In this document: positions 10,979-64,000 of the stretch, one piece after another
Layout of the letters: each line of letters starts with the position of its first letter
Numbering within the stretch: position 1 is the first letter of the stretch
Assembly (NCBI GenBank): GCA_964525535.1
Contig: CAZGHT010000004.1
Coordinates: forward strand, 23,902 to 87,901
Length of the DNA stretch: 64,000 nucleotides
Source: an uncultured Rhodothermaceae bacterium
Lineage (GTDB): Bacteria; Bacteroidota; Rhodothermia; Rhodothermales; JAHQVL01
Direction: 5' to 3'
Notes under the pieces: generated by a model
The model's database searches: none
Seen by the model: the letters and a program-made list of their open reading frames with translations, nothing else
Told to the model about the DNA's origin: nothing
Translations under genes and position numbers: made by a program

Positions 10979-11059
10979 TAAGGAATGTTGTACAGAGTCC
11001 AGTAGGAAAATCGTCTTTTCTTTGTTCAGGCTGCGTGAGCGGCTGCCCTGGTTTTAAGT

Positions 11060-11095
11060 GATGTTACGCAGGTTGTGCACCGTTCGCGTAACATC
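11060..11095. repeat. 36-bp mini-copy of the GATGTTACGC-terminated palindromic element family
   Basis: GATGTTACGCAGGTTGTGCACCGTTCGCGTAACATC. It has 10-bp perfect terminal inverted repeats and only the two arm stubs, with no central module. Lies in the divergent promoter region between 10978(-) and 11261(+). Confidence 0.75.
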
Positions 11096-11260
11096 CATTA
11101 TAAAGATAAAGCTACGTGAATACCGGTCATTTGACAAGTCCAAACCCCGTACATGGGTACGTAAAAGCGGCGGGCTTTGACCGTAACCATTTTCCGCCGT
11201 ATTATTTGGGAGTATGGACCCGATGTGTTCTCTACCCCCCTCCCAAGAATCTGTAGTCCC

Positions 11261-27144: not shown

Positions 27145-27573
27145 AATGTGTAGCGATCATGTGTTGTACAGGATGAAAGGCGGGGGGAATTGAGACTCAT
27201 TAAGCGGTGTTACGCGCAGGATAGATTATCCAAAGCGACGGACGGGACGTCCATGCGGTTTACACAATCCGGTGACAGGCATGAAAAGGTCTCACAAGGC
27301 ACGATGAGCTGCCCGGGTTGCTCGAAAAGCGGAATCGATCTTTAGCGAGTGCGCCTTGTGATTGTACGATCCATACGTGTTATTAAATCAACGGGCGGCA
27401 TCCGCTTATTATTGCGTGGCGCATCGGAAAAATGAATACCCGGTGTGCTTTCTGGCGGCGCCCGGAGTATATTAGGGTGTGTGGACATTCAGCGGCAGGA
27501 ATGCTCGGTCAACGAGGGTGTACAGCATGCCCCACGAGGTCCTGGCAACGATTGCGTACCAGCACATATGAAT

Positions 27574-27704
27574 GGATGTTGCGTATCTGTGCGTTATCGT
27601 TTTGCCCGGACGGCTTTGAATGCGCGCATATAGCTGAATAACGGCTGCAAGGCAGTCATTCAACGCCGGCAAAACGGGGTGCTGTGCACAACCTGCGTAA
27701 CATC
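27574..27704. repeat. 131-bp copy (subfamily 2) of the GATGTTACGC-terminated palindromic element
   Basis: Left end GGATGTTGCGTATCTGTGCG; right end GCTGTGCACAACCTGCGTAACATC. Nested internal stems (CGTTTTGCC.../...GGCAAAACG and GGCTTTGAATG/CATTCAACGCC). Ends 29 nt upstream of the TRAP SBP start codon. Confidence 0.75.
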
Positions 27705-27732
27705 ACTTACGAAATTAGCGTGTCGCAGCACT

Positions 27733-38700: not shown

Positions 38701-40015
38701 GGGGAATCCTATGGAAGGAGAGCTCGCCTTCGGTGGGTTCAGCTATGGGTGGCGACAGGTCGTGATGCCTCTCCCCGGAAAAGAAGAAGTACGCTTGCGA
38801 TTTGACTTCGGGACGGATCTGGACAACGCCGGCGGCCGCCGGCCGGCAGGGTGGCACCTCGATGATCTGTCTGTCGTCGCCGAATTGACAGAAGACCCAT
38901 CCTATCCACGCGCCGTTCAGCTTCCCGAAGCGGTGAGAGTGCGAGATGTGGGAGCTGCGCCGCCCCCCGTTTTTGCGAATATATTCGATAACGTGGGCCT
39001 GTCGGAAGTACAGGTGGAATATACATACCACGATATCGATGCTGGGGAACAGGAAGGGATATTCCGCCTCGTAATGGATTCGACGCTGATCTCCGGATTT
39101 TATGGAGCTTTTCCAGGTGATTACTCTCAGGCACAGGTTGGAGACAGCATCACTTATCGATTTGTGGCCAGGGATTTTGCAGGAAATACATCCGTGTTCC
39201 CGAATCGACTCCAGCCGCCACTGCGCGTCGAGTACAGGCTGCGAGATCGCATCAATCTGCTGACCCGCGTTCAAGCAACCGGACTATGGCGAAGAGAAAA
39301 CGACCTCTGGCTGGTGGAAAGCTCGGATGTTATAGCGGGCGTATCGAGTCTGGTTGTCGGTCCGGTCGATCTGCCCCGAGACGTCGATCAGATAGCGCTT
39401 TCTATGGCTTTCGAGCAGTTAATCGCCGAAAACCATGGAGGCAATGTCAAATTTTCTACGGATAGCGCTCGTCAATGGCGTGTTTTGCTTCCAGAGTCAG
39501 GGTATGACGAAACACTCCCGGATGATGTGGGGATCCCAGAATCAATGAGGGGAGAAGAAGTGTTCAGCGGGCCCTGGATCGGCATCAGAGAGGTTAAATT
39601 CGACCTGGCAGACTATGCAGGGCAGCAACTCTGGTTCCGTATAGACTTTGCCACGGATGAGACCCCGGCCCAGAATGAAAAATGGCAAATCAATGAAGCA
39701 TCGATTCATTACAGTTCGCTCGTAGCCGTCGATGGGGAGTTCGATATCCCGCGAACCTTTGCCTTGCACGGCAACTTCCCTGACCCGTTTTCTTTCTCGA
39801 CCACGATCTCGTATACCCTTTCTCAAGCTTCGGACGTGCGTCTGGAACTGTTCGACGTGCTCGGAAGAAAAATTCAGACCCTTCTCCAGAGTCGCCAATC
39901 TGCCGGCAGTTATTCTCTGCTCTACGACGGTTCCCGTTTGTCGCCCGGCCTGTACCTGCTCCGGCTGGAAACAAACCAGGGTCATGATGTGGAACGTATC
40001 CTCGTTACGAGGTGA
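35783..40015 (+). CDS. large secreted M36 (fungalysin)-like zinc metalloprotease with T9SS C-terminal sorting domain
   Basis: Signal peptide. FTP/PepSY-like propeptide region. HEYGHALLE plus downstream EGWADYW (third ligand, as in M36). Two ...GGNVK(V/F)STD... modules. C-terminal FPDPFSFSTTISYTL...LELFDVLGRK...GLYLLRL (T9SS CTD). Confidence 0.85.
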   Translation: MLYRWFYRRRVIRSVFVVVCAWGFMLGNAQAQTPPSQKPVNPGPQTVNALMQQSDTLIQYRTRPATNGRIDVETGAFRALYRQQEAPVPGPFTSPARQALAYVHTYEALLGVESPLTTLREHSTVSTPYSHHVTYRQYFEGIPVYNSYVKVNLNREGEVTLVLNGYASHVNTTPLSSMQPVLTEQMAMERARSELAATIVDTSTPERVIVPSKPARLAWRMVAWTSNPSRELDILIDARDGALLAIYPLSTHAHRASGHTESDAASPGVGPAQPGNRSVTSERHLAETFVEPLARAVGTGYVFDPDPLTTSSRFYGPPFVDGNDAGVSEVDAERILVQLPDITQGGDGLYRLIGPHVQIVGTTARGGVNYEPPAVSSPDDFRFSRSEPFFEAVNAYYHIDKSQRYVQSLGLGRDIQNVSLRVNPHGMGDEDNSQYSSFQNFIEFGLGGVDDAEDAFVIWHEYGHALLEGSAPGLLGTFEGRALHEGWADYWAASYSREIQELNASHRSDWQSFFKWDSGDGTIWAGRQLGFAGTYPDDVYCDEGGFFCDIYADGMLWATTLMQVYDVLGRTITDRLNLASHIYLAPPLTFRDAAEAVIQADVDLYGGAHIGFLAQLFAERGLVTNTLGPVIVHEPLKATEQLEGTVPLRVEATGLFSEIERVFVVYTHPGADADTLDLAINADSVFVANLPLPSTPGSVSYYIGAFDELDLFTTDPLGAPGQLYSFDVGPDTSPPTIQHTPLTTLAISDWPASVSADVQDNLSVDSVQVMYYVEDPAGNRVDEDQFGLKFTSAGYRGTFPTSLDLIQPGSTVFYQIRAIDEAQAQNVAVDPESDYHSFDVVLKDGLFVEYDIERDEPGVVKSGSWARGEPAYGLRVAHSGRNVYATHPAAPYQEISQRSSLTLPPVNLQGIEQAYLVFWHWFEIEHAGDATPDGDSSAVLWDGGNVKVSTDDGATWDVLSPLTGYNGRIAEGRGNPMEGELAFGGFSYGWRQVVMPLPGKEEVRLRFDFGTDLDNAGGRRPAGWHLDDLSVVAELTEDPSYPRAVQLPEAVRVRDVGAAPPPVFANIFDNVGLSEVQVEYTYHDIDAGEQEGIFRLVMDSTLISGFYGAFPGDYSQAQVGDSITYRFVARDFAGNTSVFPNRLQPPLRVEYRLRDRINLLTRVQATGLWRRENDLWLVESSDVIAGVSSLVVGPVDLPRDVDQIALSMAFEQLIAENHGGNVKFSTDSARQWRVLLPESGYDETLPDDVGIPESMRGEEVFSGPWIGIREVKFDLADYAGQQLWFRIDFATDETPAQNEKWQINEASIHYSSLVAVDGEFDIPRTFALHGNFPDPFSFSTTISYTLSQASDVRLELFDVLGRKIQTLLQSRQSAGSYSLLYDGSRLSPGLYLLRLETNQGHDVERILVTR

Positions 40016-40123
40016 CGTTGCGCGAACGGTGCACAGTCCGCCATTTCGACGGTTGTGAGGTTCGCTCAGCAAACGGAAGCCGTTTAGGCCGGGCCTTGCG
40101 TAGCCGTCACGGAAGTGTAACGC
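40014..40123. repeat. degenerate copy of the GATGTTACGC-terminated element
   Basis: The left end GACGTTGCGCGAACGGTGCACAG matches the subfamily-1 arm GATGTTACGCGAACTGTGCACAG at 20/23 positions and begins inside the protease stop codon (TGA 40013..40015). Central AAACGG-AAG-CCGTTT hairpin. Right end poorly conserved (GTGTAACGCC). Confidence 0.4.
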
Positions 40124-40378
40124 CGGCGGGTCGTCCTGCACGACCCTCTACCACGTGATATACTGCTGTACGGGAATTCTACCGTGGAGCAATTTATTGA
40201 AGGCGGCGTATTATGAGTTTCTGATTAATACGCCATAGTTGCGTTCTTTGTATTGTTTTTTTCGATCACGAGGTGAAATTGCATGTTTATCGAACTCACG
40301 GTTCTATGCAGGTTTGGCCCTTTATGGCCTGAGTCATACGCAGAATGGCGTACATCCCGTTAACACCATTTCACGGCA

Positions 40379-52468: not shown

Positions 52469-52503
52469 GAGTCGTTACGTGGTTGAGTGTTGCTTTGACG
52501 AAC

Positions 52504-52602
52504 GGATGTTACGGGCCGGATGTGCATATGCCCTGCCAGAGCGGTTTCACACGTATGCAAAGCCGCGTAAACCAGTTTCTTGAGCCCAGTTCGCGTAACA
52601 TC
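52504..52602. repeat. 98/99-bp copy (subfamily 1, diverged) of the GATGTTACGC-terminated element
   Basis: GGATGTTACGGGCCGGATGTGCATATG...CCAGTTCGCGTAACATC. 82/98 identical to the 62178..62275 copy in the same orientation. The central hairpin is degraded. Lies in the divergent region between 52468(-) and 52684(+). Confidence 0.8.
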
Positions 52603-52683
52603 GCTGACGAAGAGAAAAGACGTGTTTTGTGTTTCCTGTAAAACCCTTATGTTGCCTTTATTGAGGCAAGGTAAATTGCACCC

Positions 52684-56027: not shown

Positions 56028-56122
56028 AAAACAATGAAATAATTAAGCAATATTTTCTTCTCTCAATAACAATTATCGGGCCAGAACGAGATCTTTAAAT
56101 AAGAAAAGCTCAAATAAGTCAT

Positions 56123-56222
56123 GGATGTTACACAGGTTGTGCACAGCAATACTATAAAACAGGCGTTGACCGAAGCGAAATGCCTTCGCGGCAGCTCTTT
56201 TGCGCACAGATGCGTAACATCC
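56123..56222. repeat. 100-bp copy (subfamily 2) of the GATGTTACGC-terminated element
   Basis: GGATGTTACACAGGTTGTGCACAGC...TGCGCACAGATGCGTAACATCC. Both arms match the arms of the 27574..27704 copy in inverted order. Different central module (CGAAG-N8-CTTCG). Confidence 0.8.
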
Positions 56223-56232
56223 ATTAGTAAAT

Positions 56233-56330
56233 GATGTTACGCGAACTGTGCACAGCAGCCTGGTTGACGCGGCTTTGCAACCGTGCAAAGCCGCTCGGGT
56301 AGCACGTATGCGCATCCGGCGCGTAACATC
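56233..56330. repeat. 98-bp copy (subfamily 1) of the GATGTTACGC-terminated element
   Basis: GATGTTACGCGAACTGTGCACAGCAGCC...GCGGCTTTGCAACCGTGCAAAGCCGC...GTATGCGCATCCGGCGCGTAACATC. 94/98 identical to the reverse complement of 62178..62275. 11-bp perfect TIRs and an 11-bp central stem. Confidence 0.9.
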
Positions 56331-56454
56331 TGTATTAATGGGGGACTGTGGCCGGCGGCCGATCGTGGAGTTGTCTCATAAGCAATTACGAAAATACCTC
56401 TTTGAGTATCATGCTGTATGAGTTTGCCGAGGGACTGGCCATCATGCCGCCTTT

Positions 56455-60684: not shown

Positions 60685-61962
60685 TCAAGTGCCGGCAGAA
60701 TAATCTGTGGCATAGGTCGTTTGATCGTCCGTAAGTGCATCGATCTCGATGCCCATCGTACGGAGTTTAAGTTGAGCAATTTCCTGATCCAGGGATACGG
60801 GTAAGTCGTACACGGCAGGGCTCAATGTGTCGCCGTTTTTGTGAGATTCTGCAAGAGACAGATGAGCCATGAACTGGTTTGCAAAGCTCATGTCCATCAC
60901 TTCTGAAGGATGGCCCTCGGCAGCAGCCAGGTTGACGAGCCTTCCATCTGCAAGGACGAAAATTTTCCGCCCCGATTCGAGTGTGTACTCCCGGTTGTTT
61001 GCGCGGATCATACGGGCGTCGTTGGACAATTCTGCGAGTTCCTTCAAGTTCAGTTCGACATCGTAGTGCCCTGTATTACATACGATTGCGCCGTCTTTCA
61101 TGCGGGCAAAGTGGCGGCCTCGGATCACATTCTTCATCCCGGTAGCGGTAACGAAGATGTCTCCGATTTCGGCAGCCTCATCCATGGGCAGCACTCTGTG
61201 GCCTTCGAGGGTGGCCTTAAGGGCATTGGTGGGGCGTACTTCCGTGATGATGACATTGGCGCCTAGCCCTTTGGCTCGCATTGCCACCCCTCGGCCGCAA
61301 TGCCCATACCCGGCTACGACGAAGTTCTTGCCGGCAACAAGTACGCTCGAGGCGCGCAATATGCCATCGATGGTGCTCTGGCCGGTTCCGTACACATTAT
61401 CGAAGTCCCATTTTGTCTCCGCATCGTTGACGGCGTAGATGGGATAGAGCAGTTTGCCGTCATCTGCCATGGCGCGGAGCCGGTGCACACCCGTTGTCGT
61501 TTCTTCGCTGCCTCCTATAATATCGTTGGCCTTTTCCGGGAAACGGTGGTGTACCGTGAAGATCAAGTCGGCGCCGTCATCAAGGGTTAACTGAGGCGTT
61601 TTGTCTATTGTGCGGTCGATGCACCAGTAAAATTCGTCGGTGGACATACCATGCCAGGCGTATATTTCGATGCCTGCTTTGGCCAGGGCAGCTGCCACTT
61701 CATCGTTCGTGCTCAGGGGATTGCATCCACTCCAGGAAACTTCCGCACCGCAGGCGGCAAGCGTCTCACAAAGTACAGCCGTTTCTTTCGTGACATGCAG
61801 ACAGCCGGCGATTTTGTAGCCCGTGAACGGTTTGGTTGCTGCGTACTTTTCTCTAAGGCTCATGAGAACGGGCATTCTGCTCTCGGCCCACTCTACTCTG
61901 AGCCGTCCGGCATCGGCCATACCCAAGTCTTTTACTTTGTAAGCGCCTTCTTTGTAGTCCAT
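60685..61962 (-). CDS. ahcY: adenosylhomocysteinase
   Basis: 425 aa, colinear with AhcY. NAD-binding VAGYGHCGRGVA; conserved DDGAD, EETTTGV, NLAAAEGHP. Confidence 0.97.
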   Translation of the reverse strand: MDYKEGAYKVKDLGMADAGRLRVEWAESRMPVLMSLREKYAATKPFTGYKIAGCLHVTKETAVLCETLAACGAEVSWSGCNPLSTNDEVAAALAKAGIEIYAWHGMSTDEFYWCIDRTIDKTPQLTLDDGADLIFTVHHRFPEKANDIIGGSEETTTGVHRLRAMADDGKLLYPIYAVNDAETKWDFDNVYGTGQSTIDGILRASSVLVAGKNFVVAGYGHCGRGVAMRAKGLGANVIITEVRPTNALKATLEGHRVLPMDEAAEIGDIFVTATGMKNVIRGRHFARMKDGAIVCNTGHYDVELNLKELAELSNDARMIRANNREYTLESGRKIFVLADGRLVNLAAAEGHPSEVMDMSFANQFMAHLSLAESHKNGDTLSPAVYDLPVSLDQEIAQLKLRTMGIEIDALTDDQTTYATDYSAGT

Positions 61963-62177
61963 ACGTTAATAAATCGGTTAGATTGAGGTGATCCAGTGTA
62001 AACGTACCGGGGAAAGCAAGGGCGGTTGTTGCCAGTCCAACTGGCAGATTGATGCTATCGAACTCGACATTGAATTCGACATGGTAGATCAGAGGCCGTT
62101 TACTTTCCAAGTCGTTCATTCTATACAACTGCGACCACCTGTAGTTGCCAAAGAATGAAAATTCACTTCATTTTACA

Positions 62178-62275
62178 GATGTTACGCGCCGGATGCGCAT
62201 ACGTGCTGCCAGAGCGGCTTTGCACGGTTGCAAAGCCGCGTAAACCAGGCTGCTGCGCACAGTTCGCGTAACATC
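62178..62275. repeat. 98-bp copy (subfamily 1) of the GATGTTACGC-terminated element
   Basis: GATGTTACGCGCCGGATGCGCATACGTGCTGCCAGAGCGGCTTTGCACGGTTGCAAAGCCGCGTAAACCAGGCTGCTGCGCACAGTTCGCGTAACATC. Flanked by CATTTTA on both sides (62169..62175 and 62278..62284). Confidence 0.9.
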
Positions 62276-62537
62276 ACCATTTTAGAAGGCTGTTGATACA
62301 TTCCGTATCTCATCGTTGCGCGCCGCATTCACACTTCGACGCGACGCCTCGATCTACGAAATGTCTCCGTCGGCCTTTGCCGAGACTCTTTTAACAGCCT
62401 TTTCGTGGTTGTGCGTCTGGGTGACCCAGCCTATCTTCAAGGAAGACGGCCGTGCGGTAGTATGGATCAGTCGCAACTGGCCTGGCTAGGATTCGTATGT
62501 TATCTCGACCCCAGTCATTAGTTTTTAGGTGAAACCC

Positions 62538-62921
62538 ATGTTCGGTCCATATCTCTGGATCCTGATTCCACTGTTGATTCCCATATTTGGTATCATTGCC
62601 GGTGCATTCACGGAGTGGCTCAAGTTCAAGGAAAAACAAAACCAGCTGGGTACTTCAACCAGTAAGCTCGAAGGCGAAGTGAAAAAATTGTTGAAGGCCG
62701 TAGAACAATCTGAAGCCCGGCAGACCGCTCTCGTCGAACGCATTCAAAATTTGGAAACGATTGTGACCAGCGCGGAATGGGATGCTCTTGAAGTGCACCC
62801 CAAAACGAGGGGTATTTTGGATGACGGTCCGGATAACGCACATGAAACTCTTAACCTCCTCGACGATAAGCGTGATAAGGTAAATGAGGTAGCAAATATT
62901 GCGCGCCGATTACCCGTATAG
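62538..62921 (+). CDS. small membrane-anchored coiled-coil protein (PspB-like C-terminal motif)
   Basis: ATG at 62538 is preceded by AGGTGA. One N-terminal TM helix, then a helical region with ERIQNLETIVTSAEWD reminiscent of PspB. Weak assignment. Confidence 0.45.
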   Translation: MFGPYLWILIPLLIPIFGIIAGAFTEWLKFKEKQNQLGTSTSKLEGEVKKLLKAVEQSEARQTALVERIQNLETIVTSAEWDALEVHPKTRGILDDGPDNAHETLNLLDDKRDKVNEVANIARRLPV

Positions 62922-62946
62922 AAGGTTCGCCGCGTCTTTGTTCGCT

Positions 62947-62962
62947 TCCGGCGCGTAACATC
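62947..62962. repeat. end fragment of a subfamily-1 element
   Basis: TCCGGCGCGTAACATC followed by TGTA is identical to the right end of the 56233..56330 copy. The rest of the element is absent or unrecognisable. Confidence 0.5.
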
Positions 62963-62975
62963 TGTAAGGAAGTAA

Positions 62976-63070
62976 GATCGCGCCAACTGTTCACAACAGG
63001 GGGGGAATGCGGCTTTACTTTCCTGCAAAGCCGCTCTTTCAGGACCTATGCGCACCCGGTGCGTGACAAC
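62976..63070. repeat. degenerate 95-bp subfamily-1 element
   Basis: GATCGCGCCAACTGTTCACAACAGG...GCGGCTTTAC-N-TGCAAAGCCGC...CTATGCGCACCCGGTGCGTGACAAC. Colinear with 56233..56330 but with indels and substitutions. Ends 10 nt before the ndh start. Confidence 0.6.
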
Positions 63071-63080
63071 TGTAAATATC

Positions 63081-64000
63081 ATGAGAAAAAAAGTCGTTGT
63101 GGTAGGGGCTGGGTTCGGAGGGCTGAGTGTGGTCAGACATTTGCGAAAGGCGCCGGTTGACGTCGTGTTGATCGACAAGCACAATTATCATACGTTTCAG
63201 CCGCTTCTGTATCAGGTAGCGACAGCGGGTCTGGAAGCGGAAGAAATCGCTCATTCGATCAGGGGCATTTTCCATAAGCAGAAAAACTTTGAGTTTTGCC
63301 TGGGCGAAGCAAGGAGCGTAGACTGGGCCAGCAACCACGTGGAGCTCAGAAACGGAATCAGAGTTTCGTTCGACTATCTGGTATTGGCTGCGGGAGGGAC
63401 GACAAACTACTTCGGCGTGGCGGGTGCAGAGCGTTACGGTTTTGCCCTGAAAAACCTGGAAGAAGCGGTCAGGCTGAGATCCCACATCATCACCTGTTTC
63501 GAACTGGCCGACCAGATGCGCGATCGGTTCGAACCGGGCATGATACATATTGTTGTGGTTGGTGGGGGGCCTACCGGAGTCGAGATGGCCGGTGCTCTCT
63601 GCGAGCTTTTTCAGAAGGTGCTTCGTAAAGATTATCCAAAATTGCCTGAGGATGCGTTTAGGGTTACTCTCGTAGAGGGCTTCCCTCATTTGCTGAATGC
63701 CTACCATCCCTCCTCACAGAAGTACGCGCTGAAGCAGCTCAGAAGAAAAGGTGTACATGTAATGCTCGATAGGCAGGTGACTGAGGTCACGGATTCGACC
63801 GTTATGCTGGATTCGGGCGAAGTGTTGGAGGCCAACACGTTGGTCTGGGCCGCAGGCATTCGCGCAAATTCACTGGCTGAATGGATTAATTTGCCGACCA
63901 CCCGTGGCGGTCGCGTTGAAGTGGAGGACAATCTGAGCGTGAAAGGGTATGGGAATGTGTTCGTCGTCGGCGACCTTGCCGGCAGCCAGGACGATGAGGG
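63081..64000 (+). CDS. ndh: type II NADH:quinone oxidoreductase (NDH-2), 3'-truncated by window end
   Basis: My own translation from ATG 63081 is open to the window end: MRKKVVVVGAGFGGLSVV...HNYHTFQPLLYQVATAGL...IVVVGGGPTGVEMAGAL...VFVVGDLAG (two dinucleotide-binding folds). Not in the ORF track because no stop is reached. Confidence 0.9.
   Translation, partial: MRKKVVVVGAGFGGLSVVRHLRKAPVDVVLIDKHNYHTFQPLLYQVATAGLEAEEIAHSIRGIFHKQKNFEFCLGEARSVDWASNHVELRNGIRVSFDYLVLAAGGTTNYFGVAGAERYGFALKNLEEAVRLRSHIITCFELADQMRDRFEPGMIHIVVVGGGPTGVEMAGALCELFQKVLRKDYPKLPEDAFRVTLVEGFPHLLNAYHPSSQKYALKQLRRKGVHVMLDRQVTEVTDSTVMLDSGEVLEANTLVWAAGIRANSLAEWINLPTTRGGRVEVEDNLSVKGYGNVFVVGDLAGSQDDE

Follow-up and report, generated by a model that had tools for sequence, protein, structure and literature searches.

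The intergenic regions of this Rhodothermales chromosome carry a dispersed 102-bp repeat that is, in all likelihood, a MITE with a 7-bp AT-rich target-site duplication, presumably moved in trans by a DDE transposase for which the ISPepr1 subgroup of the IS4 family is the best fit. The repeat has terminal inverted repeats, a duplication of fixed length (7 bp) and dispersed copies with unrelated flanks. It is also of the size expected of such an element, non-coding, and located outside all Pfam-annotated genes.

Copies and anatomy of the repeat

The window, by which we mean the whole 64-kb stretch of DNA that was analysed, is ordinary chromosome, with gyrB, pyrG, metK, fabF, gcvP, rnc, rpoN, ruvB, ahcY and ndh among its genes, and no transposase or integrase was found among its long ORFs scanned against Pfam. 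The 11-mer that forms the end of the repeat is matched 13 times in the window with at most one mismatch, versus 1.5 matches expected, and none of 100 shuffles reaches 13. A nhmmer profile built from the copies retrieves four full copies and weaker remnants. Copies and remnants together number about ten, or approximately one per 7 kb, and every one of them is intergenic. They are listed here with their flanking duplications, and the intact ones are referred to below by the first position of the core.

11058-11097 (core 11060-11095), no strand assigned: 36-bp minimal form in which two inverted ends are joined at GTGCAC
27682-27706, plus strand: solo end (CTGTGCACAACCTGCGTAACATCAC), detected as a motif match, with a weaker opposite end at 27206-27216
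40012-40124, plus strand: old degenerate copy (nhmmer E=0.023), directly after the stop codon of an M36 peptidase-like gene
52496-52502: left target-site duplication TGACGAA of the 52505 copy, 7/7
52503-52604, minus strand: full copy (core 52505-52602) with about 81% identity to the two young copies, between the divergent HMGL and M1-peptidase genes
52605-52611: right target-site duplication TGACGAA of the 52505 copy, 7/7
56122-56223, no strand assigned: older copy, sister subfamily, with ends of the type GATGTTACrCAGGTTGTGCACAG on both sides
56231-56332, plus strand: full copy, 94/98 identical to the 62178 copy and inverted relative to it, found by nhmmer
62169-62175: left target-site duplication CATTTTA, 7/7 at register 2,2
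62176-62277, minus strand: full copy, made up of core 62178-62275 and one dinucleotide per side (nhmmer E=7e-33), hairpin
62278-62284: right target-site duplication CATTTTA, 7/7 at register 2,2
62944-62964, plus strand: solo 'A' end (TCCGGCGCGTAACATCTG) left over from another copy, detected as a motif match
62972-63078, plus strand: degenerate full-length copy (nhmmer E=1e-26), ending a few nucleotides before the ndh start codon (63081)

The initial annotation had drawn attention to two 98-bp sequences in opposite orientation that differ at only four positions. A base-by-base comparison of the reverse complement of 62178-62275 with 56233-56330 gives the same count, the 4 mismatches in 98 positions being located at 56252, 56266, 56297 and 56300. 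The repeat search of the window returns this pair as 103-nt arms (56232-56334 and 62174-62276) that are 96% complementary. Identity ends at most 1-4 nt past the core on both sides. The unrelated flanks, together with a gene order collinear with that of element-free relatives, bear out the proposal that the two sequences are independent members of a dispersed repeat and not a segmental duplication. The 62178 copy, whose GCCGG-side ('A') end is on the left, lies upstream of ahcY (60685-61962, minus strand) at a distance of about 215 bp, and the 56233 copy lies downstream of rpoN, about 125 bp after its stop codon.

The terminal inverted repeats of these two copies are perfect over 11 bp (GATGTTACGCG...CGCGTAACATC), and the ends of the 52505 copy match the 11-mer at 10/11 and 11/11 positions. 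The full terminal inverted repeat is 13 bp long and consists of a variable dinucleotide and the invariant GATGTTACGCG. The full element is accordingly 2+98+2 = 102 bp, the 2 nt that flank the core on each side being included because the duplication lies at the same 2-nt offset in the 52505 copy as in the 62178 copy. In the copies of this genome, a second conserved box, TGTGCRCA (with TGCRCA within it), is found 16-22 nt inside each core end. The interior of the element is palindromic, with a central 11-bp stem (GCGGCTTTGCA-n4-TGCAAAGCCGC), and the two ends differ just inside the inverted repeat, where an 'A' end (…GCCGGATGCGCA) can be told from a 'B' end (…GAACTGTGCRCAG). When folded as single-stranded DNA and compared with shuffles, the young copies reach -34.8 kcal/mol (z=-5.7, the 62178 copy) and -30.4 kcal/mol (z=-4.8); the 52505 copy folds no better than its shuffles (z=+0.6).

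The older copy at 56122-56223 is flanked by TAAGTCA (56115-56121) and TTAGTAA (56224-56230), identical at 5/7 positions in the register of the other copies, and its core stops 11 nt short of the core of the 56233 copy. The palindrome at 11060-11095 may be a deletion derivative or else the smallest form that can still be mobilised. The family has long been active in this Rhodothermales lineage and comprises a young pair (4% apart), a copy of 81% identity, sister subfamilies, degenerate copies and solo ends.

End-like motifs (GGTGTTACGCG ... TGCGTAACATC) also bound a 499-bp intergenic region at 27206-27704, which is either a longer non-autonomous element or a stretch between two unrelated solo ends. 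The small ORFs of this region gave no significant Pfam match and no recognisable coding remnant.

The target-site duplication

The heptamer CATTTTA is present, as the initial annotation stated, at 62169-62175 and 62278-62284, each time 2 nt from the core; elsewhere on the plus strand of the 64-kb window it occurs only three times. The idea that it represents a target-site duplication can now be put more strongly than when it was proposed. Indeed, a perfect 7-bp duplication flanks two of the three intact copies of the window, the older copy retains 5/7, and the same geometry recurs in other phyla. It had been considered only suggestive on the grounds that no other copy shows an equally clean duplication, and this has to be corrected, since the 52505 copy is bordered by a perfect TGACGAA at the same 2-nt offset. 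The 56233 copy is the one without a duplication (TTAGTAA versus TATTAAT, 2/7).

A 7/7 match at a fixed register has a probability of about 8e-5 per element, and at least two perfect copies out of three would be obtained by chance with a probability of about 2e-8 (per-position match probability 0.26). The analysis was extended to a set of 23 elements with these ends, among the matches listed. Ten of the 23 have at least 5/7 identity at the (2,2) register, versus 8% in mismatched-flank controls (binomial p=5e-6). Column by column, the two flanks agree in 11-16 of the 23 elements within a block of seven columns, versus 4-8 in most neighbouring columns; one flank column outside the block reaches 12 of 23. 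The AT content of the duplicated 7-mers is 73-81%, versus 33-59% for the loci in which they lie, and their sequences come close to the palindrome TTAnTAA.

These observations also settle the status of the tetranucleotide TGTA that follows the GCCGG-side end and that had been thought possibly to belong to the element. Since the 2 nt between the duplication and the core are part of the element, TGTA is composed of TG, the element's own terminal dinucleotide (at 4/5 GCCGG-side ends), and of TA, which is the start of the AT-rich target; the proposal is thus right for the first half and wrong for the second. Read from the other strand, the element dinucleotide at 'A' ends is CA in four of five cases, at different sites.

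Other duplication lengths were considered and dropped. For a duplication of 11 bp, the outer 2+2 columns are mostly not above background, and a 3-bp TWA duplication leaves the non-palindromic 7/7 repeats unexplained. A TA duplication of the kind seen with Correia, RUP or IS630-type MITEs was discarded because the flanks are not TA/TA and because CATTTTA, TGACGAA, TGAAGAA and TCAGTAA all exceed a 2-bp duplication.

Comparison with syntenic relatives and with other phyla

The homologues of the AhcY protein bear the names Rhodothermales and Rhodocaloribacter. The closest non-identical ones (88-89% identical) are encoded on contigs (L018-L021) that have the same gene order as the window, from the CLIPPER-domain giant protein to ndh. 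Neither a copy of the element nor an end motif was found within 21 kb in these four syntenic relatives, and the three intergenic regions compared are shorter there by about 100-155 bp. The HMGL/M1-peptidase spacer, for instance, measures 215 bp in the window versus 79-108 bp in the relatives. The junction between the conserved 130-aa hypothetical gene (62529-62921) and ndh, whose start is at 63081, is 159 bp long in the window (62922-63080) versus 3 bp in the relatives. It is filled by the solo end and the degenerate copy, and the elements are therefore tolerated inside a probable operon.

Alignment of the region upstream of ahcY with the relatives yields a conserved block and no alignable single CATTTTA, the flanks having diverged (44-47% GC versus 54%, with AhcY at 88-89%). 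An empty site would be expected to contain the heptamer once, in the sequence ...GAAGTGAATTTTCATTTTAGAAGGCT... The conserved block, at 62139-62167 (AGTGAATTTTCA…GGCAACTACAG; reverse complement AGTGAATTTTCAtTC...GGCAACTACAG), is kept in L019 and L020, the remaining intergenic DNA being unalignable. It gave no Rfam match and may serve ahcY as a promoter or regulatory site. The block directly adjoins the CATTTTA of the 62178 copy; this insertion therefore lies just upstream of the probable ahcY control region.

An identical AhcY is encoded on two Logan contigs (L001 and L002; SRR6462991 and SRR6462996), both of which begin within the 62178 copy. At 5,869 bp, the longer contig has approximately the length that separates the 62178 copy from the 56233 copy, which fits with short-read assembly breaking at the repeat. 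The repeat would explain why assemblies of this organism from short reads are fragmented, with contigs that end inside copies, and why several of its intergenic regions are longer than those of its relatives. The near-identical inverted segments of about 100 bp that bracket the rpoN-ahcY block are potential substrates for inversion, and the copies in regulatory positions (upstream of ahcY, downstream of rpoN and at the junction of the 130-aa gene with ndh) could alter expression.

Elements with the same ends were detected in other taxa. A genome scan with one genome per species, in which two 11-mers had to lie 62-92 nt apart, returned at least 15 loci, in three termite-gut Opitutaceae MAGs, in Blastocatellia, in another Acidobacteriota MAG, in Hymenobacter cavernae and in a Saprospiraceae MAG. 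The terminal repeat, usually CTGATGTTACGCG, is common to the Opitutaceae, Blastocatellia/Acidobacteriota and Hymenobacter elements. The interiors are unrelated to that of the window element and to one another, and there are several subfamilies per genome. It should be kept in mind that, in repeats that are palindromic, the 22-nt inverted pattern amounts to only about 11 nt of specificity. Because the pattern match by itself is of low specificity, the cross-phylum claim is founded on the duplication geometry and on a CT dinucleotide that the search did not demand and that precedes GATG at 30 of the 36 ends in other phyla, among the matches listed. In the window, CT is found at 0/10 ends and the terminal dinucleotide is poorly conserved. 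As for the geometry, direct repeats in the register of the window were found, for instance, at L003 (TGAAGAA, 7/7) and at L009, L011 and L017 (6/7 each).

At L024, the second of two elements is flanked by perfect TCAGTAA repeats, the left one of which takes in the final 4 nt of the neighbouring element; the target of this insertion was therefore the end of a copy already in place. Insertion into the ends of resident copies likewise accounts for the close neighbours seen at L004, L013 and L025 and at 56221/56233 in the window.

A metagenome scan with the family-specific pattern gave no match. With the inverse arrangement (end, N0-30, end), 10 loci were obtained, of which only L024 and L025 are relevant; the remaining 8/10, which illustrate the low specificity of the pattern, were rejected as an unrelated large palindromic repeat in which the 11-mer is contained by chance. 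These eight loci (L022, L023 and L026-L031, on JGI24703J35330 and Ga0082212 metagenome contigs) form a separate palindromic family of more than 250 bp and 42-49% GC, with the 11-mer pair reversed in arrangement around ACATGAGCTCATGT and centres of 14, 24 or 29 nt. This family is probably unrelated to the window element. The start of L025 (positions 1-236, Ga0172373_10007632) resembles what we take to be the C-terminus of an IS110-family transposase (…IGAVMHKLLRQVFGVLKSQRSFDPNF*), about 105 nt before the element end, and an IS110-type element may have inserted into the hairpin repeat at this place. At L016 (positions 1100-1220, Saprospiraceae MAG JBJXGO010000100.1), tandem 13-nt iterations (GATGTTTCACGCA / GATGTTACGCG / GATGTTTCACACA / GATGTTTCGCAGA) are mirrored on the opposite side, a multi-repeat terminal architecture unlike that of the other loci.

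The putative mobilising enzyme and known systems

We infer that the mover is a DDE transposase, IS4-like and of the ISPepr1 subgroup. Such a transposase, encoded elsewhere in the genome, would bind both ends of the element, make cuts staggered by 7 nt in an AT-rich target (roughly TTAnTAA) and join the element to it; repair of the gaps would then generate the 7-bp direct repeat that flanks the element. In a survey of the IS4 family, the ISPepr1 subgroup is characterized by direct repeats of 7-8 bp, AT-rich targets, 5'-CT ends and the terminal consensus YT-AA-YTT---A (De Palmenaer et al. 2008, PMC2266710). The elements described here resemble this subgroup in the length of the duplication, in the AT content of the target (73-81%) and in the 5'-CT at 30/36 ends from other phyla among the matches listed, but differ from it in that CTGATGTTACGCG fits only 5/8 fixed consensus positions and that the window ends are not CT. 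A terminal dinucleotide that is neither CT nor well conserved, as in this genome, is unusual for a transposase cleavage site. IS10, which belongs to a related IS4 subgroup, begins with CTGATG.

The search for an autonomous element bounded by these ends was negative in the window and in the 8-kb flanks of 15 genomic loci among the matches listed, and a Pfam search of the ORFs adjoining the elements in the MAG loci returned housekeeping genes only. Viral contigs gave 0 matches to the element ends in a scan of the kind that covers ends up to 600 bp apart, and BLAST of the elements against plasmids gave nothing meaningful. ISPepr1 was not found in 200 kb of the 202-kb pPRO1 of Pelobacter propionicus, where ISPepr2, ISPepr5 and ISPepr6 are present. 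With the Tn5 transposase as query, tblastn detects IS4-family genes in Bacteroidota plasmids; the IS4-family element of a Haliscomenobacter plasmid was rejected as the parent, its ends being different. Literature searches with the end sequence led only to attI1 primers and to unrelated primers, and none retrieved MITE papers for these taxa. The occurrence of one short end around unrelated interiors in several phyla points to a transposase that has been transferred widely and whose recognition of the ends is unusually conserved. We consider it quite unlikely that there is a MITE superfamily, defined by the CTGATGTTACGCG end, the 7-bp duplication and the TTAnTAA-like target and present in Rhodothermales/Bacteroidota, Verrucomicrobiota and Acidobacteriota, for which no described insertion sequence accounts and which is moved by a host-resident (domesticated) enzyme or by an IS group not yet described.

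Gene conversion or local homogenisation of old copies located 5.8 kb apart might be the source of the 96% identity between the 56233 and 62178 copies; the repeat would still be a MITE, but at least one of the two could then not be called a young insertion. This reading is unlikely, although the 56233 copy lacks a duplication, whereas its older neighbour retains 5/7, and although the two copies are close together and the third intact copy of the window is only about 81% identical to them. Local transposon hopping likewise places young copies near each other, and insertion next to or into a resident copy, as at L024, L013 and L004, followed by rearrangement, could erase a duplication; moreover, identity stops at the element ends and the 62178 copy has the perfect duplication expected of a recent insertion. 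It is highly improbable that the repeats persist instead because they serve the host, for example as structured RNAs, as attenuators of transcription or as palindromes bound by a protein, and that the flanking repeats are incidental. The strong folding of the young copies (z=-5.7 and -4.8) and the presence of copies in 5' and 3' untranslated positions and at an operon junction would be in keeping with such a role, but the 52505 copy does not share this folding, and position and orientation relative to genes are inconsistent. Furthermore, no relevant Rfam match was obtained at gathering or lenient thresholds, 0/3 terminator-like sites in 61900-63150 overlap a copy, and the syntenic relatives carry the same genes without the elements.

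Two further readings, both of them alternatives to a DDE enzyme, appeal to known classes of repeats. REP/REPIN sequences are, like the present family, dense intergenic palindromic doublets and singlets, and it could be argued that a single-copy RAYT (HUH/Y1) transposase has spread the elements, which would be REPIN-like doublets of a host repeat. The density of one per 7 kb, the strictly intergenic location, the hairpin doublets with solo ends and the failure to find an IS with these ends all point in that direction. We nevertheless hold this very unlikely in view of the fixed-length 7-bp duplication of variable sequence (to our knowledge, no fixed-length target duplication has been described for REP/REPIN), the non-palindromic single ends and the 13-mer end common to several phyla, REP sequences being described as lineage-specific; no RAYT (Y1 transposase) gene was found among the window ORFs scanned. 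Extremely unlikely is the reading in which a tyrosine recombinase (integron- or Xer-like) binds the ends and crossover takes place in the flanking 7-mer, which would then not be a product of repair. It arises from the 10-mer GATGTTACGC, which occurs in the attI1 site of class 1 integrons, and from neighbouring elements that can sit 2+7+2 nt apart, in a 13-7-13 inverted arrangement resembling a recombinase core site. The sequence GATGTTACGC(A) at 56233-56243 of the window is identical to part of attI1, and the match presumably lies in the IntI1-binding direct repeat (GTTACGC). The attI1 sequence with GATGTTACGC is contained in primers of PMC2811028. This identity is probably a coincidence; if the mover were of an undescribed kind, it could hint at an unusual recombinase. 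As in attC, whose hairpin is of similar length, a GTTACGC/GCGTAAC pair lies at the hairpin base. The order is reversed, however: GTTACGC is at the 5' end and GCGTAAC at the 3' end of the element, whereas attC has R'' (RYYYAAC) 5' and R' (GTTRRRY) 3'. Tyrosine recombinases normally need a shared overlap, but the flanking 7-mers vary between sites. A fixed 13-7-13 architecture was also dropped, the spacing between neighbours being 7, 8, 11, 11 and 12 nt. Finally, unlike integron cassettes, the copies are isolated between housekeeping genes, with no cassette arrays and no integrase among the window ORFs scanned.

The MITE reading, with a transposase acting in trans, can be set beside the known bacterial MITEs. 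Like Correia/CREE of Neisseria, RUP of Streptococcus pneumoniae, ERIC, Nezha of cyanobacteria and MIC231 of Bacillus cereus, the window element is about 100 bp long and non-coding, with a hairpin and terminal inverted repeats, and like them it has dispersed intergenic copies, a target duplication of fixed length, subfamilies and decayed copies. Correia and RUP duplicate TA, and we know of none among these five whose end matches nnGATGTTACGCG together with a 7-bp AT-rich duplication. Unlike those MITEs, the window element has ends common to at least three phyla, with unrelated interiors and no known cognate IS. It is thus a new family of a well-known kind, an ordinary bacterial repeat that is unusual only in having ends common to several phyla.
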